Shown: one piece after another, positions 349 through 64,000 of the stretch
How positions within the stretch are numbered: position 1 is the stretch's first letter
How the letters are laid out: each line of letters opens with the position of its first letter
Notes under the pieces: model-generated
Told to the model about the DNA's origin: nothing
The model's input: only the letters and a program-made list of their open reading frames with translations
Database searches by the model: none
Origin: a virus
Length of the DNA stretch: 64,000 bases
Virus record (IMG/VR): IMGVR_UViG_3300045988_173968
Reading direction: 5' to 3' (one strand)
Position numbers and translations under genes: made by a program

Positions 349-1539
349 TCAACACACTAACGGTGTTCCTTCGCGCAGTCTTTCTACAGCCTCGAGCATC
401 TGTTTTTCTGCTTTTTCGTAGACCGTATGTGAGTAGACATTAAGGGTAATGCTCGCATCGGAATGACCCATCAAATATTGAAGTTCCTTTATCTCTACGC
501 CAGCATGTAGCATATTTGTGCAGAATGTATGACGGAAGATGTGTGGTGTAACTTCAAATAGTGGTTCATCAGGATGGGCTCTTCGATAGGCCAGCAAGGC
601 TCTCCTTATGAGCTTGTTGAAGTCGTCTCCTCCTCGTACAAGTCCTTCCTTCGTCCTGACGATAAAACCAGTATAACCGTCGATATATTGTTCGAATCCC
701 ATCTTACGCGCTTTTTCCACCAGCTGCTTCATGCTTTTTTCAACCTCAGTCGTCATGGGTATAAATCTTTTTCCTGAAGATGTCTTTGGTGGCCCAATAC
801 AGAACTCTGAATGAGTATTGCCTCTTAACAACTGGTGATCCACCTTGATTCTCCTATTTTCGAAATCCAAATCACCATATGTCAATCCACAAAACTCAGA
901 AATACGCATCCCCGTATTCAAAAGCACAAGACATTCATCATAGTATCTTGAATAATAAACGCTGTTTTTTATAAACTCCATCCATGATTTCTGCTGTTGT
1001 TTTGTCAATGCTTTTCTGTCGTGCTCTGGCCTTGCTACAATATCCGTACAGCTAAATGTCACTGGGTTTTTACGCACAACATCGTCATTTACGAGCATCT
1101 CGTATCCGCCTTTTAGAACTCTCCACACTTCTCTGAGCATCGCATAGGTTGCTCCATTGTTTCGAGCCGAAACAAACCATTCGAGTAAAGTGGATGGCTT
1201 GACAAATGCAGCTCTCATCGCGCCAAGTGATTCTCTTGATAGGCGATTTCTCGCTGTCCTATAACAGCATATGGTACTTCTTTTGCATGCGCCTCGCTTT
1301 ATCTCGAGCCATTTATCAATCATTTCAAGGATTGTGATGTCTCTTGCGTCATAGTCAATCCCGTCTCGAATGTCTTGTTCAATCTGCGCCTCTTTTTCTC
1401 GAAGCTCCTGCAAGGTTTCGGCATAAACATAGCCTCTTTTCCCTTTGCATGTTGTGTAACGATACTGGTATCTTCCGTCTTTTCTTTCATCTTCTCCTTT
1501 CCTCAATACTCGTCCTTTACTATCTTTTCTGCGTTCCAT
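349..1539 (-). CDS. int: Tyrosine integrase (Tn916/phage-integrase family)
   Basis: 396 aa. C-terminal catalytic region HIFRHTFCTN...LMGHSDASITLNVYSH has the R..H-x-x-R..H..Y pattern. TGA stop and no in-frame TAG. Confidence 0.9.
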   Translation of the reverse strand: MERRKDSKGRVLRKGEDERKDGRYQYRYTTCKGKRGYVYAETLQELREKEAQIEQDIRDGIDYDARDITILEMIDKWLEIKRGACKRSTICCYRTARNRLSRESLGAMRAAFVKPSTLLEWFVSARNNGATYAMLREVWRVLKGGYEMLVNDDVVRKNPVTFSCTDIVARPEHDRKALTKQQQKSWMEFIKNSVYYSRYYDECLVLLNTGMRISEFCGLTYGDLDFENRRIKVDHQLLRGNTHSEFCIGPPKTSSGKRFIPMTTEVEKSMKQLVEKARKMGFEQYIDGYTGFIVRTKEGLVRGGDDFNKLIRRALLAYRRAHPDEPLFEVTPHIFRHTFCTNMLHAGVEIKELQYLMGHSDASITLNVYSHTVYEKAEKQMLEAVERLREGTPLVC

Positions 1540-6212: not shown

Positions 6213-9200
6213 TCATTCAACCCTTTCGTACTTAATGAGATACCAATATCCGCTTTGATTCTTTTGGACATCAGAAGCGTATATAATGTCTCCCTTGCTG
6301 ATTTTGTTCTTGTTATATGTAGCTGTTCTGATTGTTAATCTCGCATTCTTCCCTGTTCCCATTGAACGAGTAAAGCAGGCATAGCCCCATACATCACCGG
6401 AAGTTTTAGACTTTAATGGCACCAAATCGGTTACTATCAGCTTCCGTCTGTCTTCCGGTACTCCTGTCTTAATGTCGATATATCCAAGTATATCGAGCTG
6501 GTTTTGCATTTTAACTTTAAGGTTAATTTCAGAGATATTGAGGCTTTTGATATAGTCCTCGCATTCATGGAGAATAGCTGTCATATCCGTAATTGTGTAG
6601 GTTTTCAGCTCTTCGTTTTTCGCATTACGATCTGTTGCATGTCTGGCAACGATATGCTCCAACTCTGAACCAGCAAGCTTATCTTTGCGGATCGTCTTCA
6701 TTGTTCCCTGTTTAAAGAAATCAAACATCCGCATTATCCGAGACAGCTCTGCGCTATTCCCGAATTGCTGGAAATAATCAATTTGGATAAGCGGTGTTAC
6801 TTTTGCTTCCTTGATAGATCTCTCATTGAGCCAGCTCAGCACATCAACGAAATATTTAAAATCATTTTTGCTACACTGATATAATTCACGAGCGAGTGTC
6901 TTGCCAAAGCCTTTGACCGATGTAAGCGACTTGGTTATGATGCGTTTCTCCACATCTGCAATGGGAGCCCTGTTATCTTGTCCGTATCTATATGGCAAGA
7001 ACTTAATACCGAAGTATTCCTCAGCCTCTCTCTTAGCGTCTTGAGCCCTGTCTTTGTCGCCCTTTTCTTCCATCTGGTTTATGAAAACCTCGTAGAACTC
7101 AACCGGATGATGAGCTTTGAGCCAAGCGCCGTACAAGCTATCCAATGACACACAATAGGAGTGAGAGTTCGATGTAACGATGCCGGTTGCCGTGACAAAA
7201 TTGTGTGCCGGGTCTGACATTTCAACATCGTATGTAAGTTCTTCGCCCAACTTTTCAATAGTGGCAATCTTTTTGAGTAACGGCTGCGGGGATGCTTTAT
7301 CAATTTTGATTTGATAAACCATTTCGGGTGACATCCAGTAAAGCTCATCGCCAACAGATAATTCGTAGAGCTGCTTGTCGCCGCTTGGTGTCGGGAACTT
7401 GTGATTACCCGTACATTTAATGAACATGCCGTGACCATTTTCGAGCGTCACCTTATAAACTGGTTGTTTTCCTGCTGGACGAATGTCAACAATTTTGTTC
7501 TTCGCCAGCCCAGCTTTCCCAAAAGAGTAGCCGTATCCATAACCACGCCGAGCATATTCCATGTGGAGCGGATGTTCCTGGTCATGCATGGCTTTGTACA
7601 TTGTCTCTACGGTTTCCATGCGAGAGTCATACTTCATAATGAATGTGTCACCGGATACACAAGCGTTGAATGAATAACGGCTGGAGTCTTCGATAATTGT
7701 CCACAGGTCGCCCGCCAGCTTCTCTGCTTCTTTTCCTGGCTTCTTTTCGTCCCGAATGATCGCCGCCGCAAAGCCAGAGATGAATTTGTCTTTATATGAT
7801 AAGACCTTTTCTACTCTCTTTTTTGCTATATTTTTGATTGCCGTGTAACACTCCGACATAGGAATTCCTGCGTAATGTAGTGCTGCCATTTCCATCTCCT
7901 GATACAGGACGAAGCTGTTTGGCATTTCCTCTGTCTGGATTAGTTCGTCGAAAGATTTGACCCCGTACTTAAACGGCTGGCGGCTTTCGAATGTCTTGTA
8001 CATGCTTGCAAATCCAGGTCTTATTGCTGCCACAAATGCGCAAAGCTCCGAAATGTTGGTCGGGTGATACTTCGCAACGCGAGCTGTTGTGCCTGTTTTT
8101 TCGACCTGATTGATACCGATAGTTGCACCCTTGGCGTAAACATCCCATGCCGGATCATTCGGAGGACACATTTCTAAGAGCTCCGTTACGCTCGGAGGCT
8201 CCATTCCTATTCTGTCGAAGACCTTATACATCAGGTCTACAACCTTTACTGTAAGTAAATCATTCTTAAGAAAGTGATATTCTTCTGCCCAATGGCCGTC
8301 CATCAGGCAACAGAGATTGTCCTTGATCCTCACCAAGCCAATCTCCTCTCGAATACTTCCTTGATACAGGAGGTAGGAGCAAGGTGCAATACTCCAGCTT
8401 GATATCAAGCCTCGAAAATCATTGCTCTTATCGAATACCTCCCAATATTGTTTGTCGATGTATTTATGTACATCAATGTCTTCTTTTTCATCTTCATCTG
8501 CGTGTTTAAGAGCAGTTTCATATCTCTTTATCTGCTCAGACACTTCGTTGGCAAGCTCAAACGGGACACCCTGTGATTTTGCGTACAGTTTCCATGCGGC
8601 AGATGCCTTTGCTGTGCCGTATGCAATCATCGGATACGCATGGTCATCACCAAGAACCTGTTTTTGAGCCAAGGCAAATGGCTCCTGATTGTCTACATTA
8701 AAGTCAATATCGGGCAGAGATCCACTCTGCAATATTCTTTCTGTAGACATAAATCGTTCTGGGTACATCTTGACTGTAGCCGCAATGCGGTCTACTTCCG
8801 TAAAGCCAAGAAGCATATTCGTAACAAAGCTAACTGCACTGCCACGACCACTTTTCGTCAAATGACCGCCGTTTTTCTTGCCTTGCTTAATTACTTCGTG
8901 GTTAATGATAAAGTAGTCCGCCGTCTTAGTGTCAATTACGGTTTGAACTTCCTTTGCAATTTCATCAATGTAATGTTTCCGCTTTTCTGGAGGAATGCCT
9001 TTCGAATAAGCCTTAAATCCGTTCCTAATGAGCTGCTTATAGATTTCATCTCGTTCCTCTTGAGGTTTATCCAAATACAGAGACGGCATCTTGATATCTT
9101 TGTTGAATATCGGCGAGTCATACTCCTCAACTTGCAAAAACACATTCGTGTTCTCAATTGCTTCTCTTATCTCGCCGTCAGACAACACACACTGTTCTGC

Positions 9201-9917
9201 AAACCGTCGGTACGCTTCATCACCACCAGGATAGTCAAGATACCACCCTTCTTCTTGCGGATAAGTAAGACCTTTTGAAACAAGATAGTCTGTCCGGTCT
9301 TGCGCCTGTTTAGGATAGATATAATGACTATCACATCCCATGATAAGTGGTATCCCACTTTCTCTATGGATACGGATGATTCTTTTGTTCAGTTCCCGCT
9401 GCGACTCCGTATTGTGGTACTGAACCTCCAAATAGAAGTTGCGCCTAAAATGTCCGAACAATGCAGCAACAAAATTCTCGACATCTTCGTAATCCCAAAA
9501 CTTAATGCAAGCAGAAGTCACCCACACATCATCGGGTGGCAAAGAGAGAATCAGTTCTTTATCTAATCTTGCCTGTCCGTAGAAGCCTGTATCATTCGCT
9601 TCGGACATGACATTATTTAACGCTCTACGACCTTTCTCGTTCTTTGCTCCGATGAATATATGGCAGTTAGTACGGTCTTTCTCAAATCTGTCGTTGACCT
9701 AATAGGCTTCAACCGATTCAAGGAATTTGAGACCATATTTTTTAGCCACCTCGTAAGCCTCGATGTATCTCCCTTGGTATCCGTGTTCACACGAGGACAG
9801 AATGCCGTGGCCAAGCTCCACCGCTCTTTTGGCATAGTCCTCGTAGTTTACGGTACTATCGGAGATCCGAGGGTTTGTAAACCAAGAATGTTTGTGATAA
9901 TTCTGATAAACAAACAA
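6213..9917 (-). CDS. dnaE: DNA polymerase III alpha (DnaE-like) with N-terminal PHP domain, one in-frame TAG and a mini-intein
   Basis: Track ORFs 9699-9917 (PHP: NYHKHS...SCEHGY) and 6213-9608 are in one frame joined by TAG 9701-9699 (..SVEAY[TAG]VNDRF..). Shows IRPGFASMY and the FN/SHS motif split by the intein. TTG start. Confidence 0.85.
7167..7661 (-). other. Mini-intein (about 165 aa) inserted in the DnaE YSFN|SHS motif
   Basis: Starts CVSGDTFI (block A), has CTGNHKF (block B TxxH), and ends HNFVTATGIVTSN|S (blocks F/G). The flanks rejoin to SFNA-SHSYC. Confidence 0.7.
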
Positions 9918-9930
9918 TCATATGACCTCC

Positions 9931-11868
9931 TCACTTTCCGAATATCTCTTCTTCCGTATCAACAACTGGATACGGCACATGGTCTATGTATTCTGTAGTA
10001 TCCCAAGCGTAATTGTGCTCAAACTCTTCCGGCTTCGTAAAGAACCGCCGAGACGGCACATCGTAATATAAACCGCACTCGAGATTTGCTCGACCTCTTA
10101 AGCGGTCTTTCTGAACGCTAACGACCACATCGTATGGGCATGATGGCTTAACCCACCCGTCACCCTTTGCGTTTGGAATACCAGCCTTTTCTTTCTTTCC
10201 TATTCGTCTAAGGCTAATAGCTCTGTGCGCCAAATTGATTAAATTTGCCGTACCACTCAACTCATACAAGCCCACATTTTCCGTAAGGTCTTGCATCTTT
10301 CTCGGATGGCAAACCAATATAGTACAAACATTATATTTCATGCTAAATTGAATTAGCCAGTTGACGAGTTCGGTTTGTTTCTGCCACTTGTTGTCGTCGT
10401 TTGCACCGAGGTCAATAGTCGTCATGTTGTCAAGTAGAAACAGCTTGCTGCCGTACTTACGAACCGAATCTATCATCGAATCTTGTATCGATTTTACATC
10501 GTTGCTCCAATCGTCTTTATACAGCATGAGCTTTCCGCGATAGAAGTCGGATATTTTCTTCTTTGCCTCCGGCTTAACTCGGTAGTATGTAGCACCTTCT
10601 GGGCTAACATATTCCACGAGGTGGCGTCTCCCAGCCAATAGGTACATAAGCCAGTTGCGGCTCATCCACGCCGGCAGTTCCTTTGAATACACCCAGCAGT
10701 TTTTCTCTTGGTCGAGTGCTTGACAAATTAACTGGTAAAGAAAGGAAGTTTTGCCGGAGCCAGGTGTCCCTGAAATAATAGTAAAGCTTCCATAGAACAG
10801 CCTCATCAATTCTTTGTCCAAAGCATCAATGCCAAACCGAATGCCATCTATATCTGTTAGATCAACATCTTCTACATCAGCAAAATCGACGAGCGATGGA
10901 ACTGGGCTATCCTGAGCGTTGACAATAGCTTCTAAGACCTTATCTTTGCCGAAGAAGTAAAGCATCTCATTTATATCTTTTACGGAGTGTTTTTTGCCTT
11001 CTTCATCTTCGTAATATTCTGGGATATTGACAATCTTGCATCTCCAACTACCCAAACGAGGCACTACTTCTTTGACAAATTTTAAACCTGATTCATCGTT
11101 GTCGTGAGCAATAATGATTTCTTTGAACTGCTCCAACCAATCCTAGCATTCCGGAATCCAATGAGTGTTTCCGTCGCCGAGAGGAATTGAAACGGCATTG
11201 ATAAACCCCGCCTCAACCGCTGCAGCACAATCAAGCTCTCCACTTGTAATAAGCAACGGCTGATCGACATTGATGCGGTTCATATTAAACAATATTGGAG
11301 TTGTGTCCGCACCTTGTTGGCACCAGTTCTTATTTTCACCGTGTACTATTTTTCTCGTCGGACGGTATTTAACCATCGTAAGAGTATCGTTAAGGTCGTA
11401 GTAGTTAAATGCGATGTTTCCTTTAGAATCTTGGCGAATATCAAGATAGTCTACGGTTTCTTTGCTGATTTTTCGTTTTGCCAAATAAGCATACACAGCA
11501 TCCTTTACCTCGTTCTGCTCTGGTTTTGGATAGTTATACGACCGTTTTGTTCGAACGCCTAATTCGCCAAACCCGTAAGCTACGCCGGCAAGCTCAAACA
11601 ATTTTTGAACCGCTTGCATATATGTAAGACCCTGATGCATGAAAGCATCAATAACATCATAGTTTCTCCCGCAAGCTCCAAAGCAATGGCAGCTGTTTGT
11701 TTTAGATGAAAATATAAAGGATGGCGTATTCTCCGCATGGATTGGGCAACAGCAACGCTTATGCACCGAATCGAAATCCTTAACCCCAAAGCCATCCATA
11801 ATCAATTCAAAATTTCTGTCTCCAAGCTTTTCTTTTGCCTTTTCAATCAGTTCTCTCGGTACATTCAA
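9931..11868 (-). CDS. Bifunctional primase-helicase (Zn-finger primase, Toprim, P-loop helicase), read through one TAG
   Basis: CCCPIHAENTPSF..CHCFGACG zinc finger. The Toprim domain is split by TAG 11145-11143 (..HWIPEC[TAG]DWLEQF..AHDNDESG). Walker A GTPGSGKTS and Walker B LFLLDN. Confidence 0.8.
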
Positions 11869-12731
11869 TCATCACTCACCTCGTCTTTTGCTGCGTATGG
11901 GCAGTTTTTCGAAAATCCACAAAGGTTTTTGCAGTAAAACTCGTCTCGTTCCGCAGGATATTCCTCACAGTCACGAATATTTTTTACCGTAGTCCTTACC
12001 CAACTTTCTGCTTCCTCGTATGCGTCTTTATCAAATGGGAGCTCTACTGTTTTCTGTTTCCTAAACATTCCAAAGCAAAGCTTATCCGGGTATTTACCGT
12101 ATGTATTCTTGATGTTCCTTGCATAGAGATAAAGCTGTCTAGCGTATTTCTTCAGCTCTTCTTTATCCTTAAATTTTGCTTTACTCTTCCAATCCTAAAC
12201 TGTAATCTCTCCGGTGTTTTTGTCCTCAAGAATCAAGTCAATAAAGCCCTTGATGCGGAAGTCATCAAAATCATCCGTAAACTCATGCTCGGCATCAATG
12301 ATTTTCATGTTCTTAAAGCCGTCAAAATTCTCAAAGAAGCGAACACCATCGTTGAAGTATGACTCTTTCAGATCCACATATGCATTCCATGGGAAATCCT
12401 TAGTGATCTCTTTTTCAAATCTCTCTTTGAAAGAATCAACAAGCTCCCACTCAGCGAGATCACCCCGCTCATACTCTTCAAGGATTCCATGAACCATTGT
12501 GCCATATTGCGAGAATGCATTTTCCTCATTCACATATTTTGTAAAGAACGGGCAGTGTGTTCTCTCAATTGGAGACGACAACGGATCAAAGTCTGCCAAC
12601 GCATGCTCACAACACTGTTCTTCCCTATTAAAGGAGGAACACGCCTCACAACACTTGATGTAGTTGAGCAGATATCCATACTTGCATCCATTAAATGAGG
12701 ACAATTTTGAAAATGAATAGTTTTCTTTCAA
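11865..12731 (-). CDS. PD-(D/E)XK (Cas4/RecB-like) nuclease with a C-terminal Cys cluster, read through one TAG
   Basis: Track ORFs 12195-12731 and 11865-12068 share a frame. TAG 12197-12195 sits inside the motif GFIDLILEDK..ITV[TAG]DWKS. C-terminal CKNLCGFSKNCPY. Confidence 0.7.
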
Positions 12732-16794: not shown

Positions 16795-17022
16795 CAACAT
16801 AGATTTGAGGGGAAATTCCCCTCTGTGGGTGGGCCAGGGTCGCATCGACCAGCCCGGTTGGACACTTGGCAGGCGTAGCATTCTCCTGCGTCCCTTTTGG
16901 CTCATAGAGCGTGCGGTTGCTACGAAATCTACCACCTCAAGTGCTGGTTTACTGCTTTTTAGTGTCGTGCAGTTCGACTCTCTCTAAATTGGAAATTTCC
17001 TTTTGGGCATGTTACTGCCCAA
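16795..17022 (-). ncRNA. Unclassified structured noncoding stretch immediately 3' of the CUA tRNA candidate
   Basis: No credible ORF. Helices seen by eye: TTGGGCA/TGCCCAA (17003-17022), CGTAGCA/TGCTACG, GGTGG/CCACC, and palindrome GAGGGGAAATTCCCCTC (16807-16823). Class unknown. Confidence 0.3.
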
Positions 17023-17100
17023 TGGCACGGGCCCCCGGACTCGAACCGGAATTGCATGGATTTAGAGGCCAGCATGTTTACCAATTACTTGCAGACCCGC
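17023..17100 (-). tRNA. Candidate amber-suppressor tRNA (anticodon CUA) with a non-canonical anticodon stem
   Basis: 7-bp acceptor stem (two G-U pairs), discriminator G plus encoded CCA, T-arm TCCGG-TTCGAGT-CCGGG, and a canonical 7-nt loop CU-CUA-AA. Only 3 Watson-Crick pairs in the anticodon stem and a weak D stem. Confidence 0.55.
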
Positions 17101-34733: not shown

Positions 34734-35882
34734 TTACGCAGCAACATCGTCTGCCATCATCTTGATGACATCGCAATGATACTTTTTGTTGTACCAAGAG
34801 ATCACATAATCAAAATACTCAGGTTCCACATTGCTATAATAAGAAAGCTTGCCACGCAGAGTCATTACTTCTTCCGGCGGCCAGCCCTTACCATCTTTTC
34901 TTGCAACTATGTAGTTATTCAGCATTGCCTTGAACACCTTTTTATTCTCGTGTCCAACAGTGATTTTGTTGTCTTTGTTGATCATCAAACCAAGACACCA
35001 GTTTCGACCTGCTCTGCTGCCGTAATGTGTTTTTTCTTTCTTAATGGTGTATGGCGCATCGAACTTCTTAAATACATCGTTCATCATCTCGATGACGCCC
35101 ATGAACAAGAAACCTTTCTTGGAAGAAACCGTAGCATCATCGGCGTAACGAGTGTAGACAAAATCGTTAGTCTCGCTGGCTCTCAATCGTCGAGAGATTT
35201 CATGGTCGATGGGAATCATAATGACATTAGTAAGAAGCGGAGAAATCGGAGTTCCCTGCGGCAGTCCACCATCGAGGAAACAGAGAGAGATAGCATCTCG
35301 TAGCGCTTTCTCGCCATCCTCATATTTAACAACCTCGCAGAAAGGATAAATCACGGATAACATCCGCATTGTGAATTCCAGCGTAGTCGAACCAAAGAAA
35401 TTGCTCAAGTCCGTCTTGAGGTACCAATTACTGTTGTTTCTTTGATGTACTTTCAGCGCATCAGTAGTGCTTCTGCCCTTGATGTACGCAAAAGCAGCCG
35501 TATGATATAGAACCTTAAAATCATTCTCGAAGATTGCCTTGAGACTATACAGAGCTTGTTTCAGTTCGTCATCCGGCGCATCGATCTGACGCCAACCGCC
35601 GGATTTCTTTGGAATTTTGAAAGAATTATAATGTTCTCGCATGTTGTTCGCATCAAATTTCGGCTGGTAAGTACGATTAAAACTCTTCAGCTTCCCGATA
35701 AGATACGGTGCTCGCGCCATTTCTTTTAGCTCCTGGGGGAGCTTTTTGTATTCGTAGGTTCTTGTGGATGTCCCGAAGTCCACTCCGTTAATATACGGGC
35801 TGAGATTTTTCACACCAAAGAGAACATCCTCAAGGGTAAGTTGCTTCTTTGCTCTTGTCATAAATGTGGTTACATATGGCAT
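34734..35882 (-). CDS. Reverse transcriptase (retron-like or defence-RT-like, 382 aa)
   Basis: FKIPKKSGGWRQIDAP, YLKTDLSNFFGS, LPQGTPISPLLTN, YTRYADDATVS (YADD) and LGLMINKDNK. No maturase or endonuclease domains. Confidence 0.85.
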   Translation of the reverse strand: MPYVTTFMTRAKKQLTLEDVLFGVKNLSPYINGVDFGTSTRTYEYKKLPQELKEMARAPYLIGKLKSFNRTYQPKFDANNMREHYNSFKIPKKSGGWRQIDAPDDELKQALYSLKAIFENDFKVLYHTAAFAYIKGRSTTDALKVHQRNNSNWYLKTDLSNFFGSTTLEFTMRMLSVIYPFCEVVKYEDGEKALRDAISLCFLDGGLPQGTPISPLLTNVIMIPIDHEISRRLRASETNDFVYTRYADDATVSSKKGFLFMGVIEMMNDVFKKFDAPYTIKKEKTHYGSRAGRNWCLGLMINKDNKITVGHENKKVFKAMLNNYIVARKDGKGWPPEEVMTLRGKLSYYSNVEPEYFDYVISWYNKKYHCDVIKMMADDVAA

Positions 35883-43560: not shown

Positions 43561-43629
43561 TGGTTTCGGGTGGACTTGAACCACCGACGCACTGGCTCCC
43601 AGCTGCTCTACCTCCTGAGCTACGAAACC
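43561..43629 (-). pseudogene. tRNA-like gene with a truncated anticodon arm (13 nt instead of 17)
   Basis: Normal acceptor (GGTTTCG), D arm (GCTC-AGGAGGTA-GAGC) and T arm (GGTGG-TTCAAGT-CCACC). The anticodon region is GCTGG-GAG-CCAGT, a 3-nt loop. No CCA encoded. Confidence 0.5.
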
Positions 43630-51029: not shown

Positions 51030-51488
51030 GGTATTCCTTTCTTTCGTGCCTTTCGCCTTTTGGGGCTGTTTGGCATTGTGCATGGTTATTTGGTATCCGC
51101 CCCCATGCGGGCGGTATTTTGGGCGGGGGATTATCCCCCTTGCCTATTGTATCAGTTTTCCGCACCCATTGCAATACCCTTTTTGCAGATATTCACACGC
51201 CCCATTTTCACATTTTGGGGTATGGGGGGGTATTTTTCACCGCATACCCCGCCGCTTTTGCCCAGCCAGATGCTAGCTGTTCATTCCCGTTCAGTCAATT
51301 CACTAATCCCCTCACCCATAGCGAAAAAGCCCAGTTTCAACGCAAAAACAGCCACTACACCAATTAAACCTTACAGAGAAAAAATACCACTTTTCAGTGG
51401 CAAACTTCAAAAAATCCCGTTTCACCGGTAACAACCGTATATTTATACGGCAAATTCTCCAAACGCCATATACAAATACCTTTTTTGA

Positions 51489-51497
51489 TGATATAAT
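51489..51497 (+). promoter_or_regulatory. Extended -10 promoter element (TG-a-TATAAT) upstream of the recombinase
   Basis: TGATATAAT lies about 35 nt upstream of the ATG at 51532. Confidence 0.35.
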
Positions 51498-51531
51498 ATA
51501 CTCAGAAACTAAGGTTCAAGGAGGTACATAT

Positions 51532-52326
51532 ATGGAGAGAATTGCAAAGGTTGAGTTAGAGGAAATCGAAGAGAAGGAGCTTGCGGAGAGCAAAGCAGCT
51601 GAGCCTATTAAGGACAAGGAAGACATTCGCCGTATATCGGAGTATCTGGTAGAGCAAGGCCGGTACAGAGACAACATGCTGTTTATTGTAGGGATCAATG
51701 TAGGACTGAGAGTTAGCGACCTGATAGAGCTACGGTTCAGTGACTTTATTGATGCCGATGGCAAGTACAAGACAGAGTTTGATGTATTTGAGCATAAGAC
51801 TCGCAAGAGCCGCAAGAACCCAAAGAATAGACGGATAGGTATTAACGAAGCAGTGGTTTGGGCTATTGATGAATACCTGAACAATGAAGCCCGCAAGGGC
51901 AATAAAATAAAACTAAATGAATATTTATTTCCGGCGACCAGGAGCGACACAGAGACTGGGCATATAAACCGGAAAACTGTGGACATGATGATTAAGGGAG
52001 TTATTAAGGATTTAGGTATTCAGGTTAAGGCAAGCACACACACCTTACGCAAGACATTCGGGTATCAGATGATGGAAGCAGCTCCGGTTGGCAAAAAGGA
52101 AGCTACTCTGTTACTGCTTCAGGAGATTTACGGGCATTCCGACAGCCGTACAACTAGACGATACATTGGCATTACTCAGGATGATATTACGGATGCGTAC
52201 TTGGGATTAAACCTTGGATTAGGCCCAAGACTGCAAAAGTGGTATGAAGGCCACCCCGCCAATGAACAAGGTGATCAAGTGAAATTTATTGATTTTTGTT
52301 CAGGAAAAAATGTGATTAACGGATAA
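51532..52326 (+). CDS. Tyrosine recombinase (small XerC/D-like site-specific recombinase)
   Basis: GLRVSDLIELRFSDF (catalytic R), HTLRKTFGYQM (H-x-x-R) and IYGHSDSRTTRRYIG (H..Y). Start at MERIAKV, which has a GGAGG RBS. Confidence 0.8.
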   Translation: MERIAKVELEEIEEKELAESKAAEPIKDKEDIRRISEYLVEQGRYRDNMLFIVGINVGLRVSDLIELRFSDFIDADGKYKTEFDVFEHKTRKSRKNPKNRRIGINEAVVWAIDEYLNNEARKGNKIKLNEYLFPATRSDTETGHINRKTVDMMIKGVIKDLGIQVKASTHTLRKTFGYQMMEAAPVGKKEATLLLLQEIYGHSDSRTTRRYIGITQDDITDAYLGLNLGLGPRLQKWYEGHPANEQGDQVKFIDFCSGKNVING

Positions 52327-52598
52327 TAGCCCATATTTTTTGCATTCTAACTGCAAAATTTGCAAACTGGTTGCAAAAAATTTTTAGAAAACCGCTTGAT
52401 CAATAGGCTTTACGGTACCTGTCCCTTAAAAGGAAATTATAAAGGCTAACAGTTTAACGAAAAATGGGCAAGGGTACATACGCAGGAAGAGGACGCTACC
52501 ATACCACTTGCCCCCAAGCCCCCATTGTATGTGCATGGTGGATACTGTACGCCAATGGAGGACAGTCATTATTATCTTTCGAGGACATATGTTTGTCC

Positions 52599-55342: not shown

Positions 55343-55603
55343 ATGAAGTACCGAAAGCTCCCTGTTGTAATCGAAGCATTTAAGCTCGGATCTCAGCCAA
55401 CTCCCCCATGGTTCCTTAACGCTGTACGGGATGGTCGCGTACAGATGCACTACGATGAGAAATTGTGGTGTGAGGTAAATACGCTGGAAGGTATTATGAC
55501 AGCTTCCCAGTGTGAAGACTACATAGTGCAAGGCATAGACGGCGAACTCTATCCTTGCAAAGCAAACATATTTGAGAAAACATATGAGGAGGTCGTTGAA
55601 TGA
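55343..55603 (+). CDS. PGDYG-like domain phage protein
   Basis: [28 protein letters not shown] matches the recalled pattern. Confidence 0.45.
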
Positions 55604-56103
55604 GTGTAGTTTGTGCGAGAAAGTATGAAGATAAAATAATTATGGCTGCTGACTCGATTCTTTGCCAAGGCGATATGAAACGCACAAAAGGGGATGTCGT
55701 AAAGCTTCGCTCTATCAATGGAATGGGGATTGGCGGATGTGGGATGGCGCAGGAGATTAGCCTTATGTTTCGGTTTGCTGATACTCACCTCCCATCTTCC
55801 GCTACAGAAGCTGGAATGCAGGATTTTATCGTTGAGTTTTCCAAATAGAAGCATGGTTACGATGGAGATTATAGTGTCGAAAATGTATATCTGATTACAT
55901 ACAAGGGCCATTTATTCTGTGTTGAAGATTTTCTCGTTTATGAGGTGAAAGAATACGAAGCTATCGGAGCCGGAATGTATTACGGTTTGACTGCTTTGTA
56001 TCTTGGACACACGCCAAGAGAAGCCGTAAAAGTATCGTGTGACCTGTGCTGCTATGTGGCAGAGCCAATTATTGAGGTAGAGTTCCCGAGAGAGGAGGAA
56101 TGA
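55600..56103 (+). CDS. Hypothetical protein (possible Ntn-hydrolase or proteasome-like fold) read through one TAG
   Basis: Track ORF 55600-55848 continues in frame after TAG 55846-55848 (..EFSK[TAG][18 protein letters not shown]..) to a TGA at 56101. Confidence 0.45.
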
Positions 56104-56205
56104 CCAAGTGGATAACGATTACATCGTCGATGTGAATACTCGGGACGGCAGCCGATTTATGGCTGAGTAGAATGAGTACATAGAAGAATGGGAGGGTGAG
56201 CAACA

Positions 56206-59013
56206 GTGAGCTTAACTGACCAGATAAATATCTATGCCGTAGATTCTGACGCATTCTACAACGAGGAAGAACGGGATATCAGTATTCAGCTCAATAATCT
56301 GCGCACCAGAAAGAAGAATTTGAAAGAGGAGTTACGAATTGCTGAGCAGTTTCTGGGTGGTTCCCTTCCGGAGAAGTCATAGGCTACCCGATATCGTGAG
56401 ATATACCGGTTGCGTAAGGAAATTGAGATTGACCCGCCTACACAGGATGTGGTTGAGATTCTCAATGAGCAAATTGCTACCTTGACCCCTATTATCACGG
56501 GGCTCAAAAACGAGCTTAAGGATAAACTGGAGAGCCATTCCGGAATTCGCGCCCTTGACCCTCGTGCGCTCTCCCCTAAAAATGTTATATCGGTGTTTGA
56601 ATCCGCCATGACAAGAGTGTTTGGCTTCGAGAAGGATCAGTTATACGATGATGTAATTGTTGTTCGGGCGTATTACTACGAGGTGCTGAAAGACATCATG
56701 CGGGATGGATTTCTTCACAATGGTGAGCGGTATGTGGTGTTTACGGCATCCGCAGGACAGATCCGAACCAAAAGAACCGTCTTTGTTAAGGAATCTCTGC
56801 TTGAGAAGCATCGTCTGACACTCATGTGTGGGCTTACGGTTGACCATATCAATGAGCTGGGCGGTGTCAATGTCAATAAGTATCTGGCTTATTTGGCTTT
56901 GAGTAACTCTGCCACTGATATTTGGGAAGGGTTCGATATTGATAAGTCCATCGTTGTAGAAGACTTTGAGACGCTCGTAAATGGCACCGTAGACTACATT
57001 GATGGTACTACATATGAAATCACTCGCAAGGAAATGGGCGTTCCCATAACGCACACAGATGGCTGTGGAATGATGCTGCCGAGCATCAGTTGGAAGAACA
57101 TGATGGTGCGGCTCCCATGGGTAAAGGGATTGCTCGCCTCTTTCGACTTCAAGAAGTTCATTCGAGAGGCTAATGAGAGAGAACCGGAGATAAACCATGG
57201 TCTCGTCAGAGATATCTACGGCAAAGAATGGGATATTCTGCGAGACGATATCCGTTGTATTTTCACTAAGAGTCAGTTCAAAATGTAGAAATATTACGAC
57301 AATTGGCAGGATTATGTCGATAAATTTAAACATTATGGGTGTCTGGCGTGTAAGTGCAACGAAGAAGAGAGCTTCATCCCCAACGCCAAACTGAACTACC
57401 AGATGTTGCAGACTCTGACCGATATATCAGATGAGGAGTTGCGGGCTCTCGCTGAAAAGTCAGTCAAAAAGCTGGACAACATTGCAGCGGATAAGGATAC
57501 CATGCTCCGAGTATTTGGTGTTAAGGACAGCAACCGAGAGAAGAATCACTTTCAGAAATGTGTCGGTATCTATAATGAACTTCTCTGCCAGGAGTATTCC
57601 AAGGAAACCTTAAAACAGATAAAAAAGAGCCTCGTCAATGACTATCGGGCGGGAAAATTTGATGTTGATGGCAAATATCTGTTTATTATTCCGGATCTGT
57701 ACGCATTTTGCGAGCATCTGTTCCTTGGCATTGAAGTGCCGCAGGGGCTGCTTAAGGACGGTGAAGTGTCGGCAAGAGTGTTCGCCAAGCGGGAGAAGCT
57801 GGATTGCCTGCGGAGTCCACACCTCTACCGCGAGCATGGTGTTCGCCGTAATGTGGTCAACGAGGATACGAAGAAGTGGTTCCGTACTGATGCTCTTTAT
57901 ACAAGCTCTTATGATTTAATTAGCAAATTATTGCAATTCGATTGCGACGGAGATAAGAGCTTAGTGGTCGCTGACGAACTATTTGTCAGCATAGCAGAAC
58001 GAAACATGCATGGTATTGTCCCCCTCTATTACGAGATGGCGAAGGCGGGACAGATGCATATTGACAATATGAAGATCTACGATGGTTTGCAGGCTGCCTA
58101 CAGCGGTGGCAATATCGGTGAGATCAGCAATACTATTACGAAGATTTGGAACAGTGGCGAAATGACGCAGGATAAACTTGATGTGATTAAGTGGTTATGC
58201 TTCGAGAATAATGCAACAATTGATTACGCAAAAACATTGTAGAAGCCCATCCGCCCACATTATGTTGATAAAGCCATTAAATCCTGCGCCAACTATAAGC
58301 CACCCCAATTCTTTATTTACGCTAAAGATAAAACCCAGGAACAAGTAGAACCACGCAATGACAGCATCGTCAACAAGTTGTTTGACATTATCCCCGATAA
58401 GAGAATGCGTTTTACGGCTGCCAACCTCGGGAAGTTCGATTATAAGGTACTGATGCGAAATCCCATCGTTTCTATTGACCCTCGTGTCATTGAGAAATTC
58501 AAAGATCTTGACGCCAGAAAGAACTTGTCTTTGTCTTACGGTTCCAACGAGGAGAACTATGCATTCTTCCGTACAACCGTTAGATGTGAGCTGTATGCTA
58601 TTAACCCGAATGTGAACGCCGTCTGTGATATGCTTGTGGCTCACTTCTTCCGGGACAAGAAAAGTAAGAGCCTTAATACATTCTGGCTGTGCTATGGTGA
58701 CATAGTGTTCCAGAATATTCGAAACAACATCGAGAAAGATTACATACAGTGCAGTTGCTGCGGCAAACGGTTCTGGAGAACCTCTTATAAGAACCAGATT
58801 TGCGAGGCATGCATTGAGAAGATGTCTAATCCAAATCTGCCAAAACCAATTAGATACAAGGTAAAGGTCTGCATTGATTGTGGTAAAGAGTTCAAGACAG
58901 TTTCTACCGCAAGACGAGCTTGTCGTTGCACCGAGTGTAGCAAAATACGGAAGAGGAAAAATACAGCTAAGCGCGTATCACTCTTCCGGAGCAAAGAAAG
59001 TAACGCTTTATAA
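56206..59013 (+). CDS. YonO-like single-subunit two-barrel RNA polymerase (935 aa) read through three TAGs
   Basis: Three track ORFs (56410-57288, 57403-58242, 58378-59013) plus a 5' segment share one frame, joined by TAGs at 56380, 57286 and 58240. Metal-binding motif QFDCDGDK (DxDGD). C-terminal Zn ribbons. GTG start. Confidence 0.6.
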
Positions 59014-59234
59014 AAAAAGCGAGAAGTCCATAAAACCGCTTAAAATAAGGCTTTTTTGTCTCCGTTATTATTTAAAAATGCCGAAAAGTGCCTATTTCAA
59101 CGCATTTATCGGCATTTTCATTAAATTACAATACGGGAGGCTAATGGGCGAATTGTATGAATGTGAAGCCGCTTGTTCCCCACACTCTGGGCGGAGCAGC
59201 AACTCCGCCCGGTCAGCCACACCCGCCCACCGTT

Positions 59235-59300
59235 GGCGGCAATACAAATGAACGGCTCGATAAATACCGTCCGCTTACCACCACCGGCGGCAATACAAAT
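59235..59300. repeat. Two 15-bp direct repeats GGCGGCAATACAAAT (59235-59249 and 59286-59300) in the 470-nt spacer after the RNAP gene
   Basis: Read directly from the sequence. Each is preceded by CCACCG. Function unknown. Confidence 0.6.
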
Positions 59301-59484
59301 TGGTGGTTTAAAACAGAACAGGACTTCCTGGCACGCGCTGCAAGGCAGTGAAACACAGGGAGACATTTTGCTTAAAAGGGAGCGGTGCGCGTACACTGCT
59401 CCCCTATTCTTTATCTGCTATGGGATGGCTGACCAATAAACAGCCAAGGCTATATGCCGTAATATTTAAGGAGATTAAATTAAA

Positions 59485-59688
59485 GTGTTTAAGATCGGAA
59501 AAGATGAAGTAAAGGCGGTGCAGAAGCTTGCACCAAAAAACAAACTCAAGGTGTTGTCTCGCCGCAAGAATTCCAGAGGGCATACATACCTCGTTCTTGA
59601 TGATGATTATGATACCCTGCGCGTTCTCTCAAGCCTTCGTGGCAAGTCTATCCGAGACATCCTGGCGGACGAGTACCGCTACATTTAA
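59485..59688 (+). CDS. Hypothetical protein
   Basis: Track ORF with a GTG start and an AAGGAG RBS. Confidence 0.45.
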   Translation: MFKIGKDEVKAVQKLAPKNKLKVLSRRKNSRGHTYLVLDDDYDTLRVLSSLRGKSIRDILADEYRYI

Positions 59689-59699
59689 GGAGGTCTGGC

Positions 59700-60983
59700 A
59701 TGATAGATTTCAAGAGAAAGGAAAACGAAACAGAAAATCAGTACCTGTGGCGGGTTGGCGTAGCTATTGAAAATGGTTCTGCTGGACTGACATAGGATGA
59801 GGCTGCTCCGCTTATCAATAAGGAATGGCGCGAAGATGAATCTGAATATCGTACATCTTCTGCTTACCGTAAGCCGGTGCAGTATGCCCTCCGTTTTATG
59901 GAGGACGGTGTGTTTGATGGCAAGAAGGATGGATTGTCCGAAGAACTAATCGAACAGAAATACGAGCTGACCAAGGAGCGTATGCGTCTGCGTGATGAGC
60001 GTCGAGCAATCAACGACCGCCTGCGGTCTGCCGCTCGCTTAGATCACCGTCTGGATTACCTCGGTGAACTTATTGAGAGCAATGGCCATGCGTCTTTTGG
60101 CAATATCCAGTTGCCGGAGCAGAGAACTATCAATCGCCGTAAGGCTGACATTATTGTTTCTTTGGCTGATTTGCACATCGGCGCATCATACTATAATTAT
60201 AATGGTGTGTATGACAGCGAGATGGCAAAGAAACGGCTTGTAGAATACTTGTCGTATGTCAAGGAAATAAAGGATACACACGACCCAGAGAATTGCCACA
60301 TCGTAATTCTCGGTGATTGCATTTCCGGCAATATACATAAGAATCTATCCGTTACGAATGGCGAGAGTGTTGTAGCACAGATTCAGCTCATGTGCGACTA
60401 TGTGAGCGAGTTCTGCGGCAGAGTTGGCGAGATGTTCGGTCAGACTGGCGGCAATGTAACTATTCATTGTGTTGCTGGAAACCATACTCGTCTCGATAAG
60501 AAGGAAGATGCTCTTCACGACGAGCGCCTGGATGATTTACTTCTTTGGTATCTGAGCAGATTCTTTGCAAAGGTTCCCAATGTGTCCGTTTCCGAAGAGC
60601 GCCTCGATAACGGGATTGACCAATTCATTATTCGTGGTCGTAGCTATGTCGCAGTGCATGGCGATTTCGACGGCTTCAACGAAGCTGGCGTATCCAAACT
60701 GGCGATGTTCCTTGGGTACAAACCAAATGTTGTACTGTATGGGCACAGGCACTTCCCTGCCATGACAGAATGTTCCGATGTGGTAATGGTGCAGAGCGGC
60801 AGCTTGGGCGGTAGCGGGGATCAGTTCACACTGGAGCATCGGATGCGTTCAATGCCTGCTCAGTCCGTTCTCGTTGTTAATAGCGATGGCGTTGTTGCTC
60901 ATTATCCTGTTAAGCTTGGTATTATTCCCTGTCTCTCCTACGACCTGGAAAAGTATCCTGCGGAGGAGGATGATATCCTGTGA
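59700..60983 (+). CDS. Protein with an N-terminal HTH-like region and a C-terminal Mre11/SbcD-like metallophosphoesterase domain, read through one TAG
   Basis: ATG at 59700 with a TAAGGAGG RBS. TAG at 59793-59795 (..SAGLT[TAG]DEAAPLINKEW..) is in frame with track ORF 59877-60983 (LADLHIG, ILGDCISG, VAGNHTR, YGHRH). Confidence 0.6.
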
Positions 60984-61303
60984 ACAAACATAAATTCATA
61001 CGCTATGTATCCGACGAAACAAGGATTCGCGTGAACGAGTGCGATTATATGGTCAACGCTATTCTCCGGTGTATTAAGGATGTGTTAGCAACCGGCGAAG
61101 ATCTCTACTTAAATGACTTTGGCAAATTCATTGTCGAGCGTCGAGACCCAAGGAAGTGCATTCTGCCAGATGGCGCTGAGTGTATGGCACCTGGCAAGAT
61201 CATTATTAAGTTTCGACCTTCGGTTTCTTTGAAGGAAGAAATGGAATATGTCCCTAATCCTGAAAATCTTCGCAAGAACGGTGGCGGAGACGCAGCTAAA
61301 TAA
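60980..61303 (+). CDS. HU/IHF-family DNA-binding protein
   Basis: LNDFGKFIVERRDPRKCILPDG..APGKIIIKFRPSVSLK matches the HU beta-arm pattern. Confidence 0.7.
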   Translation: MNKHKFIRYVSDETRIRVNECDYMVNAILRCIKDVLATGEDLYLNDFGKFIVERRDPRKCILPDGAECMAPGKIIIKFRPSVSLKEEMEYVPNPENLRKNGGGDAAK

Positions 61304-61390
61304 ATGTCTGGTGAACTTGTATTAAAGGTGTACCCTACCTTAGTGGGAGCTAAAAAAGCGGTGTTGCTCAGCCGAAATTGGGCAGAGTGA

Positions 61391-61418
61391 GGGAGCGTCC
61401 GAAATGGCGCTCCCTTTT
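61391..61418 (+). terminator. Rho-independent terminator after the HU-like gene
   Basis: GGGAGCG-N10-CGCTCCC followed by TTTT. Confidence 0.65.
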
Positions 61419-61446
61419 CATATGAGCGATTAAGAGGAGTGATTAA

Positions 61447-62574
61447 ATGACCGCACCTACAAAGAGGAGCCTTAAGCCAGCGATTGGTGCGGCTAAGGAA
61501 CCTGCTTTTGAAAAGCGAAATGAAAAGTACGAATGTGTTTGCTGCCACGAAGAAAAGAAGCCTACTGATTTCTACAAATCCCCTACTGCGGCGTTTTGGG
61601 ACTACCCCGGCAGCATTACACTTGTGTGCAAGCAATGCGTCCGTAAGCAGTTTGATCGTGATGTGGATCAATACGGTCTTGACAATGCAATTATGTTTAC
61701 CTGCTATCGTCTTGACCAGCCATATATCAAGTCAACTGCAGAGGATGTTAAGGTCAACACAAACCCGTTTGATATTGGTGTTTACCTTGGCTCTGTTTCT
61801 CGTGCTGCCTATACCGGCAAATCTTTCGCGTGGTCTCTCCTTTCCGGAGAAATTAACCGTGACGATGACAATAGTGTCAAGGAAGAGAGAGAAGATAAAT
61901 GGTCTAAGCGAGACCGCCAGAATATGAACTATGTCATATCGATTATTGGGTATGACCCGTTTGATGACGCTGGCCTTAGTAATATGGACAGAAAGTATTG
62001 CTACAATGTCCTTTCATCTTACCTTAATACACCTTATATTACGGACGATTCTCACAAGATGCAGTCCGTTATCCAGCTTACCAATACATTGTTGCAGGTT
62101 CGCAAGATTGACGAAGCAATCAACAGAGAGCAGCTGAAGGCAAACACTAATACCGATACTCTCACCAATATGGTCATGGCGAGAAAGAACCTGCAGACCA
62201 TTGTAAATGCCATTGTAAAAGACAACAATATTGCCTCGCAGTATTCCAAGGAAAAGACCGGCGGGGAAAATACCTTGACCGGCAAGATGCGGGAGCTAAC
62301 CAATAATGGCTATGAAGCAATGAAGGTTAATCTATTTGATATTAAAACCTCTGAGGCTATGAAGCAAATCGCTGATCTTAGTAACTCGAGCATCATGGAA
62401 CAGCTCTCTCTAGATGCCAACGACTATACCGAAATGCTGAAAGAGCAACGCACCATGCTGACTGACCTGCGAGAAAAGGCGGATGCGCTTGAGGAGGAAA
62501 ATAGACAGCTCAAGAATAATCTTGAAAATCTGATTTCGGAATCATCAGCTAAGAGAAAGCGTGGTGGTTCATAA
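61447..62574 (+). CDS. Hypothetical protein immediately upstream of the large terminase (possible small terminase)
   Basis: Position, TAATG coupling to terL, an N-terminal Zn-ribbon (CVCC..CKQC) and a C-terminal coiled coil. Confidence 0.4.
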   Translation: MTAPTKRSLKPAIGAAKEPAFEKRNEKYECVCCHEEKKPTDFYKSPTAAFWDYPGSITLVCKQCVRKQFDRDVDQYGLDNAIMFTCYRLDQPYIKSTAEDVKVNTNPFDIGVYLGSVSRAAYTGKSFAWSLLSGEINRDDDNSVKEEREDKWSKRDRQNMNYVISIIGYDPFDDAGLSNMDRKYCYNVLSSYLNTPYITDDSHKMQSVIQLTNTLLQVRKIDEAINREQLKANTNTDTLTNMVMARKNLQTIVNAIVKDNNIASQYSKEKTGGENTLTGKMRELTNNGYEAMKVNLFDIKTSEAMKQIADLSNSSIMEQLSLDANDYTEMLKEQRTMLTDLREKADALEEENRQLKNNLENLISESSAKRKRGGS

Positions 62575-64000
62575 TGGAAATTTATGTGCCAACTACACCA
62601 TCCGAATGGTCTCAGCGCAAGGTCGAGGAATATGAAAAGGCGGCAAAAGTAATCAATTAGGGGCGAGAAAACCCTGTTCGCTTTGCGGAGGAAGTGTTCG
62701 GCATTGCCATGATCGACTATCAGAAGTGGTCTTTCATGGAGAGCTGGTGGCGGCCATATGTTCTTTGGCTCTGTAGCCGTTCAGCCGGTAAGACAACCGA
62801 GGCTGCAATCTTCTTGCAAACGAAGTGCTTCCTTATACCGAACTATACGGTCTGGATCTTTACAAACAGCGCCGGTCAGTCTATTGAGTGCTTCAAGAAA
62901 ATCGAGGATATCGCCTTGCAGAAGATTCCTTCATTTAGAACCTGTACGGACATCTTCGCTTCCGAAATCGAGAGAAACTCCAATTCCCCTACTGGGTTTA
63001 TTCATGACCCTGCGGGTCATCACTTCTCTCTGTTTAATAATTCTGGTGTGACTACCCTGTCTTCAAACCTTAACGCCATTCGTGGTAAGCGTGGTTCTAT
63101 ATTCTACGACGAGACTGGTTGGATGGGCAAAGAAGAATTTGCAACCACTGAACCATTCGCTTCACAGGACGCGAGTTGGGGTATCGGCGTCTCTAAAGGC
63201 CCTAAGTATTACGAGCCGCAGGCGATGCCTTTGCAGAGACTGTACGCTAGTTCCGCAAGTGATGTGACATATCCGTTTTACGAGAAGTATCGTGATTTCT
63301 CTAAGAAAATGATTCTTGGGCATCCTGACTACTTCGTTTGCGATATCAACGCTAACACTATTTTAGATTTCTCTACTCTTAATGGCGAACAGATCCCTTC
63401 TCACTTACAGCGAGAAGAAATCATCCGAAAGATGGACGAAGACCCGGATATGGCAGAGCGCGAATACTTCAACAAATTCTCAAAAGGCGGCGCTCAAAAC
63501 AGTGTTGTCCGTATGGAGACAATGATCCGGAACTCTTTTGTTTATCCTCCGGTTATGTGCAACGATACTGGTAAGCGTAAATTCATCTTTACATATGACC
63601 CTGCTCGCAACTTCGATGGAAGTGTCCTTTCTATTTTTGAGCTTATTGAGGACGAAAAAGTTGGATTGAAGTTGCGGTATGTGCGGTGTATTTCCTTTGT
63701 CGATACAGAAACGCGCAAGAAAACTCCATTGCCGATGAACGAGCAGGTCAAAATAATCAAAAAACTGCTCGTTGATTACAACGGGCCGAACGCTGCTGAC
63801 TGGGAAAATATCGAGGTTTATATCGATGCCGGTGCCGGTGGTGGCGGTATCTCTGCCGTGGCTGATAACCTTATGGAGGATTGGGAAGACAGTTCCGGGC
63901 AGGTGCATCGTGGCATGGTTGATCCGGAACATAAACAGTATGAGACTTCCAGGGCAAATTATCCTAATGCTCTTCCCTGCATTCATCTGATTGAACCTGC
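62574..64000 (+). CDS. terL: Terminase large subunit (3' end outside the window) read through one TAG
   Basis: Walker A CSRSAGKTT, Walker B SIFYDETGW, and a nuclease region YIDAGAGGGG. TAG at 62658-62660 (..AKVIN[TAG]GRENPVRF..). Absent from the ORF track because it is split and open-ended. Confidence 0.75.

Follow-up and report, generated by a model that had tools for sequence, protein, structure and literature searches.

In 2017 YonO of phage SPbeta was described as a processive DNA-dependent RNA polymerase with a strong preference for DNA templates, which transcribes the late genes of the phage as one operon and whose aspartate triad is essential, the 3D>3N mutant being inactive (PMC5467207). 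The YonO promoter was left undefined in that paper (PMC5467207). We here describe a yonO-like gene from a virus in IMG/VR (record IMGVR_UViG_3300045988_173968), of which one stretch of 64,000 nucleotides, from here on called the window, was analyzed. The gene is crossed by three in-frame TAG codons. Very probably the gene is intact, is maintained by selection and codes for a polymerase of the YonO type, its TAG codons being translated, apparently as tryptophan.

A phage survey states that only the changes from TAG to glutamine and from TGA to tryptophan have been observed (10.1101/2021.08.26.457843), and phAss-1 also reads TAG as glutamine (10.1101/2021.08.26.457843; PMC10607447). Because the surveys consulted report amber reassignment to glutamine only, TAG to tryptophan would be a new phage code.

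A YonO-type polymerase gene in a single frame

The original prediction, made from the letters of the window, had joined four collinear segments of the same frame into one protein of 935 residues and had called it a candidate YonO-like polymerase. The frame bears this out: 56206-59013 on the plus strand holds 935 sense positions and is interrupted by TAG alone, three times (Table 1). It opens with a GTG at 56206, 5' of which lies a GGGAGGG ribosome-binding site, and closes with a TAA at 59011; the preceding in-frame stop is a TGA at 56197. Under the standard code (table 11) the same frame splits into open reading frames (ORFs) of 58, 292, 279 and 211 amino acids.

The protein aligned by BLASTP with SPbeta YonO at 48% identity over 870 residues (746 bits). 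It matched PHROG 8308 from end to end (residues 4-872, E=1e-259) and the Pfam family PF05183 (RdRP) with 44.4 bits (E=1.3e-11), the gathering score of the family being 23.8 bits. The match extended to the DNA, with about 66% identity between nucleotides 730-1236 and the yonO genes of phi3T, SPbeta and their relatives; a megablast search of window positions 50-64 kb against GenBank phages gave no match. A protein search returned 3667 homologs, the full-length homologs from the gut being about 52% identical. Homologous prophage genes are carried by Oscillospiraceae and Clostridiales, with 52-54% identity, and also by Paenibacillus and Lachnospiraceae.

The catalytic motif had been predicted as LRSPHLYREHG followed, 35 residues further on, by DxDGD. 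Both elements are present, as residues 535-545 and within QFDCDGD (residues 577-583), but the spacer between them is 31 residues long. D579, D581, G582 and D583 are invariant in an alignment of 119 sequences, and conservation of the motif among homologs had been one of the points to be checked. The element LRSPHL resembles the R-x-P-x-L-H element found ahead of the catalytic loop in barrels of the beta-prime type, to which it may correspond. A beta-rich block (residues 248-312), a candidate for the second, beta-type barrel, carries, according to the alignment and the predicted model, the invariant residues T284, D285, G286, G288, R302, P304, K307 and G308.

Cys4 ribbons had also been expected at the C-terminus, and two are found there. 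The first (C849/C852/C866/C869) is invariant in all four cysteines among the aligned homologs and aligns with the C-terminus of YonO; the second (C889/C892 and C906-C911) lies within an extension that SPbeta YonO, with 839 residues, is without. A zinc-finger mu-protein gave a weak match to the ribbon region.

An AlphaFold2 model calculated from an alignment of 59 sequences had a mean predicted local distance difference test (pLDDT) score of 89.5 and a predicted template modeling (pTM) score of 0.81. When the model was compared with the PDB by Foldseek in search of the double-psi beta-barrel fold of such polymerases, the top 21 matches were all RDR2 or QDE-1 (E 4e-18 to 4e-12, template modeling score 0.4-0.5, probability 1.00), and the first match beyond this set had E>1. 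Of the two outcomes that had been named as refuting the original prediction, a DxDGD motif that varies among homologs and a lack of structural similarity to such polymerases, neither was observed. Among viral structure models the best matches were phage 'RdRPs'. A sequence search of the PDB returned a zinc-finger match only, and neither this search nor Foldseek retrieved a solved YonO structure.

There is hardly any doubt that the gene is a true yonO homolog whose in-frame TAG codons are read through. Judged from its sequence it encodes a functional-looking single-chain two-barrel DNA-dependent RNA polymerase of the YonO type, the activity being assigned by homology. Within the YonO family the polymerase is well conserved and in no way unusual, and its identification is a confirmation and no discovery. 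The name of the Pfam family and the activity of the best structural matches, QDE-1 and RDR2, would fit an RNA-dependent RNA polymerase instead, a very improbable assignment given that YonO, at 48% identity, prefers DNA templates and transcribes the late genes of its phage in vivo, and that the gene order and a promoter-like motif downstream of the gene agree with SPbeta.

Read-through of the TAG codons

Five close relatives of the locus (L001-L003 and L005/L043; 82-98% nucleotide identity) carry TAG at codons 59 and 361. In the comparison with L001 (dS ~0.4) the ratio of nonsynonymous to synonymous substitution rates (dN/dS) was 0.014, 0.05, 0.01 and 0.025 for the four segments delimited by the TAG codons. 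Because dN/dS is 0.01-0.05 in all four, we conclude that the whole frame of 935 codons is translated.

The polymerase gene shares in-frame TAG with other genes of the window. The genes for DnaE, the primase-helicase, a nuclease, a helicase-like protein, the exonuclease and TerL each contain a single mid-gene TAG, and the 28 complete genes of the window are terminated by TAA (19) or TGA (9), none by TAG. Window-wide there is about one TAG per 900 codons, corresponding to about 8% of the putative tryptophan codons. Among 164 loci with yonO homologs, in-frame TAG within yonO is restricted to this lineage.

That the yonO-like gene is the most TAG-dense gene of the window, as had been stated, is true by count (three) but not by density: its 3.2 TAG per 1000 codons are exceeded by the HslV-like gene (55600-56103) with 6.0 and by the nuclease gene (11865-12731) with 3.5. 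The accompanying statement that synthesis of the polymerase depends on suppression was upheld. From the sequence it follows that without suppression the full-length polymerase could not be made and that the product would be a peptide of 58 residues only.

The four ORFs under table 11 and the lack of a canonical suppressor tRNA in the window could also be taken to mean that the gene is a pseudogene in decay, or that there are four small genes, with TAG as a true stop in a standard-code genome. This is scarcely credible, since purifying selection is strong and uniform over all four segments in one frame, the TAG positions are kept across diverged relatives, mid-gene TAG also occurs in DnaE, primase-helicase, nuclease and TerL genes while no gene ends in TAG, and the catalytic triad is intact although it lies downstream of two TAGs.

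The amino acid encoded by TAG

The close relatives provided six reliable mid-gene sites at which TAG is polymorphic, and at all six TAG alternates with TGG (NrdD-257, DnaE-932, primase-helicase-392, helicase-like-317, yonO-342 and yonO-679). In homologs that use the standard code, tryptophan is the commonest residue in five of nine columns aligned with TAG, one of the five being a tie with leucine. The counts for tryptophan were 5/5 at primase-helicase-242, 40/43 at exonuclease-32, 6/8 at TerL-29 and 20/39 at helicase-like-317; in the DnaE-73 column tryptophan and leucine occur twice each in five homologs. Expressed as log-odds over the columns, tryptophan scored +17.8, tyrosine -6.1 and glutamine -36.8 bits, which puts tryptophan ahead of tyrosine by 24 and of glutamine by 55 bits. 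On this comparative evidence TAG is probably read as tryptophan.

Tyrosine, or an ambiguous aromatic residue, has to be considered because of the polymerase itself: TAG could have been derived from TAY at conserved tyrosine positions. In distant homologs column 361 of the window protein holds tyrosine 71 times in 159 sequences, tryptophan 55 times and histidine 26 times, SPbeta YonO having tryptophan, and column 679 holds tyrosine in 151 of 159 and phenylalanine in 8; in addition there is one TAC/TAG difference, in L003. We consider this reading unlikely, since codon 679 is TGG in the nearest relatives and nowhere TAY there, and since the columns of the primase-helicase, the exonuclease and TerL are dominated by tryptophan.

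Glutamine (genetic code 15) would be the conventional assignment: crAss-like, Lak and phAss-1 phages use it, and the phage surveys consulted report no other amber reassignment (10.1101/2021.08.26.457843; PMC10607447). The deposited proteins of relatives (P0001-P0003) have Q at the TAG positions, the codons themselves being TAG, and one CAG/TAG difference was found, in the third codon of a small ORF of doubtful status. The Q residues are there because a code-15 gene call supplied the translation table; glutamine is nearly missing from the homolog columns, and none of the six reliable polymorphic sites has CAG or CAA. Glutamine is therefore improbable. P0001-P0003 appear to be mistranslated (TAG as glutamine) and also incomplete, the polymerase being cut at a probable intron after 597 amino acids.

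With tryptophan as the preferred assignment, the window would likely represent, which we state a little less firmly than the assignment itself, an SPbeta-like lineage of gut phages with UAG for tryptophan, maybe via a non-canonical tRNA(CUA) derived from tRNA-Trp, whose late RNA polymerase, replication enzymes and terminase are unreadable to an uninfected or lysogenic host. If true, public gene calls mistranslate every recoded position of the lineage, and the rule that phages recode amber to glutamine only needs an exception, which bears on the question of which host aminoacyl-tRNA synthetases can be exploited.

A candidate suppressor tRNA

When the threshold of ARAGORN was relaxed to 90%, three extra tRNA candidates appeared in the 64 kb, one of them with a CUA anticodon (Table 1). 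Its loop CUCUAAA differs by a single base from CUCCAAA, the loop of bacterial tRNA-Trp. The element is identical in the close relatives; a pattern scan of IMG/VR returned members of the same lineage only and thus no diverged homologs. We regard it as a lead to a possible amber suppressor of the tryptophan type. Among the window proteins scanned there was no gene for a tryptophanyl-tRNA synthetase or a release factor.

A second tRNA-like element, in a tRNA cluster (43561-43629, minus strand; Rfam tRNA score 50.8 bits), was rejected as suppressor: it is without a normal anticodon loop, the anticodon arm being reduced to CTGG-GAG-CCAG. Adjacent to each other at 16809-16945 (minus strand) are a DUF3800-XI RNA (Rfam, 44.7 bits) and a skipping-rope RNA (43 bits); the pair adjoins the tRNA(CUA) candidate in an intergenic cluster of non-coding RNAs (ncRNAs).

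Several points weigh against an active polymerase made by reading TAG as tryptophan. No canonical suppressor tRNA was found in the 64-kb window, either by ARAGORN with default and intron settings or with the Rfam tRNA model; the genome extends past the window. The tRNA(CUA) candidate is below threshold, with an anticodon stem of 3 bp, a poor D stem and no match to the Rfam tRNA model. Two of the polymerase's own TAG columns (361 and 679) are mostly tyrosine in distant homologs, which leaves room for tyrosine or ambiguous decoding. The evidence for the decoding of TAG is at the level of sequence throughout, and activity and template preference are taken over from a homolog of 48% identity.

A candidate promoter and leader downstream of yonO

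The motif T(A/T)AGGGA is present in 43 of 92 non-redundant loci within the 450 nucleotides that follow the stop codon of yonO, and in 5.4% of control windows taken from the same strand of the same loci (P=6e-30), the count being an upper bound, as some instances elsewhere are plain ribosome-binding sites. Its median position is +132 after yonO, and TAAT usually stands 6-7 nucleotides upstream. SPbeta has two copies: GATAATCGTCATAAGGGAGA, 122 nucleotides past yonO, and the related GGATAATAGTCATTTATGAGGG, within the amplicon of the published primer-extension primers for P_YonO. In a scan of the window with a position weight matrix the matches outside 59112 were weak or resembled ribosome-binding sites.

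From the run of G in the motif a hairpin was predicted in 12 of 13 loci by single-sequence folding: GGG(A) on its 5' side is paired with (U)CCC on its 3' side, the stems in between vary in sequence, and the loop CTRATRTACAAAGTGAAGAG is conserved. RNAalifold on a MAFFT alignment of the leaders gave no consensus structure, the variable stems not being brought into register by MAFFT. The gap at 59013-59485 has no nucleotide homology to distant loci, and Rfam searches of the window and of the gap downstream of yonO gave nothing relevant at significance.

We propose that the element TAAT-N6-7-T(A/T)AGGGA is a candidate for the YonO-type promoter and leader, with the chances for and against standing about even. 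Two findings speak against it. The SPbeta transcription start is placed only to an amplicon of 240 nucleotides, and the copy in the window has C for the third A (TACGGGA), in a core TAAGGGA that is otherwise fixed. As an element kept from Bacillus to Lachnospiraceae prophages, TAAT-N-TAAGGGA with its leader hairpin is a directly testable candidate for the YonO promoter.

Originally it had been suggested to examine as promoters the repeated motifs containing TTGCAA, near the ncRNA modules and at 52340-52375. The repeats are real (52 copies, about 19 expected), but the proposal was rejected because they are not conserved beside yonO homologs, whereas TAAT-N6-7-T(A/T)AGGGA is. At 52340-52375 and 52415-52448 there are clustered TGCAAA/TTGCAA repeats, located in the gap that precedes the helicase-like gene, and, on the other strand, a leftward match to the yonO-downstream motif, TATAAT-N6-TTAAGGGAC.

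A GC-rich non-coding stretch (59160-59410) with two copies of GGCGGCAATACAAAT separates the candidate promoter from the first late ORF and closes with a strong hairpin and a T-tract (59378-59403). In SPbeta an unannotated ncRNA upstream of yonK may be its counterpart.

A probable intron in the catalytic motif of close relatives

In L001/L002, L003 and L005/L043 an insertion of 283 nucleotides separates codons 579 and 580 (QFD/CDGD). It is missing from the window, in which the corresponding site is 57942/57943, and its removal in silico restores a collinear frame of 935 codons. The exon end UUCGAU can pair with GUCGAA at intron nucleotides 12-17, with U.G at the 5' splice site; the last base of the insertion is G, and several of its helices are capped by GNRA loops. 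Substitutions between the insertions of L001 and L005 are located in loops or change G-C to G.U in helices. A group I core (P3-P9) was not detected in the insertion by Rfam even at E<=1.

The features listed suggest that the insertion is probably a group I intron without an ORF, for which splicing is predicted. Because it interrupts the gene, the proteins in the databases stop at 597 residues. A mobile group-I-like intron inside the DxDGD codons marks the most constrained sequence of the gene, and the relatives together with the window form a natural intron-plus/intron-minus pair.

Late transcription and the code change

A polymerase made only after recoding has been switched on was thought to link the transcription program to the code change. 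Suppression is indeed needed for the full-length protein, but a specific tie between transcription and code switch is not established, TAG being present in the replication genes as well.

The chain of events would be the following. TAG would have been reassigned in the lineage and would never be a stop, so that the three TAG codons of yonO would be translated, most likely as tryptophan and presumably by an amber-suppressor tRNA, for which there is the weak candidate at 17023-17100. By homology with SPbeta YonO, the polymerase would initiate about 120 nucleotides past its own gene, at TAAT-N-TA(A/C)GGGA, and would transcribe first the structured leader and after it the late operon, with the genes for exonuclease, HU, terminase and others. 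Late transcription would depend on the code change because without suppression only the 58-residue peptide is made. Rather than a device specific to the gene, the dependence seems to be a by-product of the recoding of the whole genome.

Alternatively, the three TAGs might be a selected checkpoint by which no late polymerase is made before the suppressor is expressed, for instance to silence leaky expression in the lysogen. The gene has the highest TAG count in the window, all relatives have TAG at codons 59 and 361, and both integrase-like genes are without TAG, which agrees with a published idea of a lysogeny switch in recoded prophages; two TAG-free genes out of two are not significant at this TAG density. 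Neither is the enrichment in yonO, with three TAG among 13 putative tryptophan codons as compared with the 8% of the window (P(>=3)=0.076). This value and the TAG codons in the presumably early replication genes, which need suppression too, weaken the specific regulatory reading, and two TAG sites of yonO flip freely with TGG among the relatives. A checkpoint is thus conceivable but doubtful, and the by-product of genome-wide recoding is preferred.

Genomic context and host

Downstream of the polymerase gene follows a block of co-oriented genes for exonuclease, HU and TerL, as in SPbeta. The block parallels the SPbeta order yonO-yonN(HU)-yonK-yonJ(exonuclease); the order of HU and exonuclease differs between the two. 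On the plus strand upstream of the polymerase gene lie integrase-like, helicase-like, phosphoesterase and HslV-like peptidase genes, and a minus-strand arm (1-50 kb) contains NrdD, DnaE, primase-helicase, PD-(D/E)XK nuclease and reverse-transcriptase-like genes.

An insert of about 120 amino acids in DnaE (C...SN/S) matched an intein splicing domain weakly, with 22.5 bits, which is below the cut-off; the alignment of DnaE with the relatives breaks at 8708/8709.

Given the two tyrosine-integrase-like genes, the phage is probably temperate. Its closest relatives come from gut metagenomes, and the source is probably a phage or prophage of the SPbeta type with gut Clostridia, most probably Oscillospiraceae, as hosts.

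Table 1. Coordinates of the yonO-like gene, its elements and other features of the window (for the insertion, coordinates in the relatives)
Feature	Position	Strand	Remarks
yonO-like gene	56206-59013	+	single-chain two-barrel DNA-dependent RNA polymerase by homology; frame, BLASTP, Pfam, PHROG, AlphaFold2 and Foldseek, dN/dS
In-frame TAG, codon 59	56380-56382	+	loop of N-terminal helical hairpin; homolog column variable
In-frame TAG, codon 361	57286-57288	+	TAG in 5/5 close relatives
In-frame TAG, codon 679	58240-58242	+	TGG in L005/L043, TAG in L001/L002
LRSPHL (residues 535-540)	57808-57825	+	L, R, P, H, L invariant, S537 in 118/119 (alignment n=119)
Catalytic Asp triad D579-x-D581-G582-D583	57940-57954	+	invariant in 119/119 sequences
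Two C-terminal Cys4 zinc ribbons	58750-58938	+	C849/C852/C866/C869 and C889/C892/C906-C911
Candidate YonO-type promoter/initiation element ATTAAATTACAA-TACGGGAGGC (ATTAAATTACAATACGGGAGGC)	59120-59141	+	window counterpart of T(A/T)AGGGA motif
Predicted 5' leader hairpin	59135-59181	+	GGGAGG pairs with UUCCCC
Insertion in relatives	L001 2860-3142; L005 11738-12020; L003 4264 to end		without ORF
Candidate amber-suppressor tRNA(CUA)	17023-17100	-	encoded G73-CCA end, canonical T-arm, loop CUCUAAA
Presumed YonO-transcribed late block	59485-64000	+	PHROG matches, order parallel to that of SPbeta
Small ORF	59485-59688	+	first of downstream same-strand block
Exonuclease	59700-60983	+	phrog_284; TAG codon 32
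HU-like gene	60980-61303	+	PHROG match
Gene without named function	61447-62574	+	between HU-like gene and TerL
TerL	62574 onward	+	TAG codon 29
DnaE-type PolIII alpha	6213-9917	-	one TAG (codon 73)
Reverse-transcriptase-like ORF	34734-35882	-	phrog_2825 E=7e-41; phrog_1423 'Reverse transcriptase'; early arm
Tyrosine-integrase-like gene 1	349-1539	-	without TAG
Tyrosine-integrase-like gene 2	51397-52326	+	without TAG

Comparison with known systems

Group I introns occupy conserved sites of phage genes, for example of the ribonucleotide reductase gene of SPbeta. The insertion in the relatives resembles them in its location within the most conserved codons of the gene and differs in having neither an ORF nor a match to the Rfam family Intron_gpI.

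With the gut phages that use code 15 (crAss-like, Lak, Garnet/Topaz and phAss-1) the lineage of the window has in common in-frame TAG in essential genes and a host lineage with the standard code (10.1101/2021.08.26.457843; PMC10607447). In both, TAG is avoided as terminator and the integrase genes are without TAG. In the code-15 phages TAG aligns with glutamine, whereas in the window lineage it aligns with tryptophan and swaps with TGG; and the former usually have a canonical tRNA(CUA), whereas the window has a non-canonical candidate only and a low density of TAG. TAG is read as tryptophan in the plastid code of Balanophoraceae (NCBI table 32), which is thus alike in the change from amber to tryptophan but belongs to the plastid of a parasitic plant, with another lineage and mechanism.

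QDE-1 and RDR2 (PDB 2j7n, 7y7q, 7rqs, 7w82) have the fold with two double-psi beta-barrels and PF05183 in common with the window protein and align with it over more than 800 columns, at a sequence identity of 12-14%. Their role is in RNA silencing, with RNA or single-stranded DNA as template, whereas the YonO branch is that of a phage transcriptase.

From SPbeta YonO the window gene differs in having TAG at three positions instead of a sense codon and in a product that is 96 residues longer (935 versus 839), the extra parts being a coiled-coil insert near the N-terminus (about residues 26-61) and the second C-terminal zinc ribbon. The host of SPbeta is Bacillus, that of the window phage probably a gut member of the Clostridia. 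Common to both polymerases are homology over the full length, the DxDGD triad and the first C-terminal zinc ribbon (PMC5467207), and in both phages the gene is directly upstream of the late operon and is followed by a motif of the TAAGGGA type.

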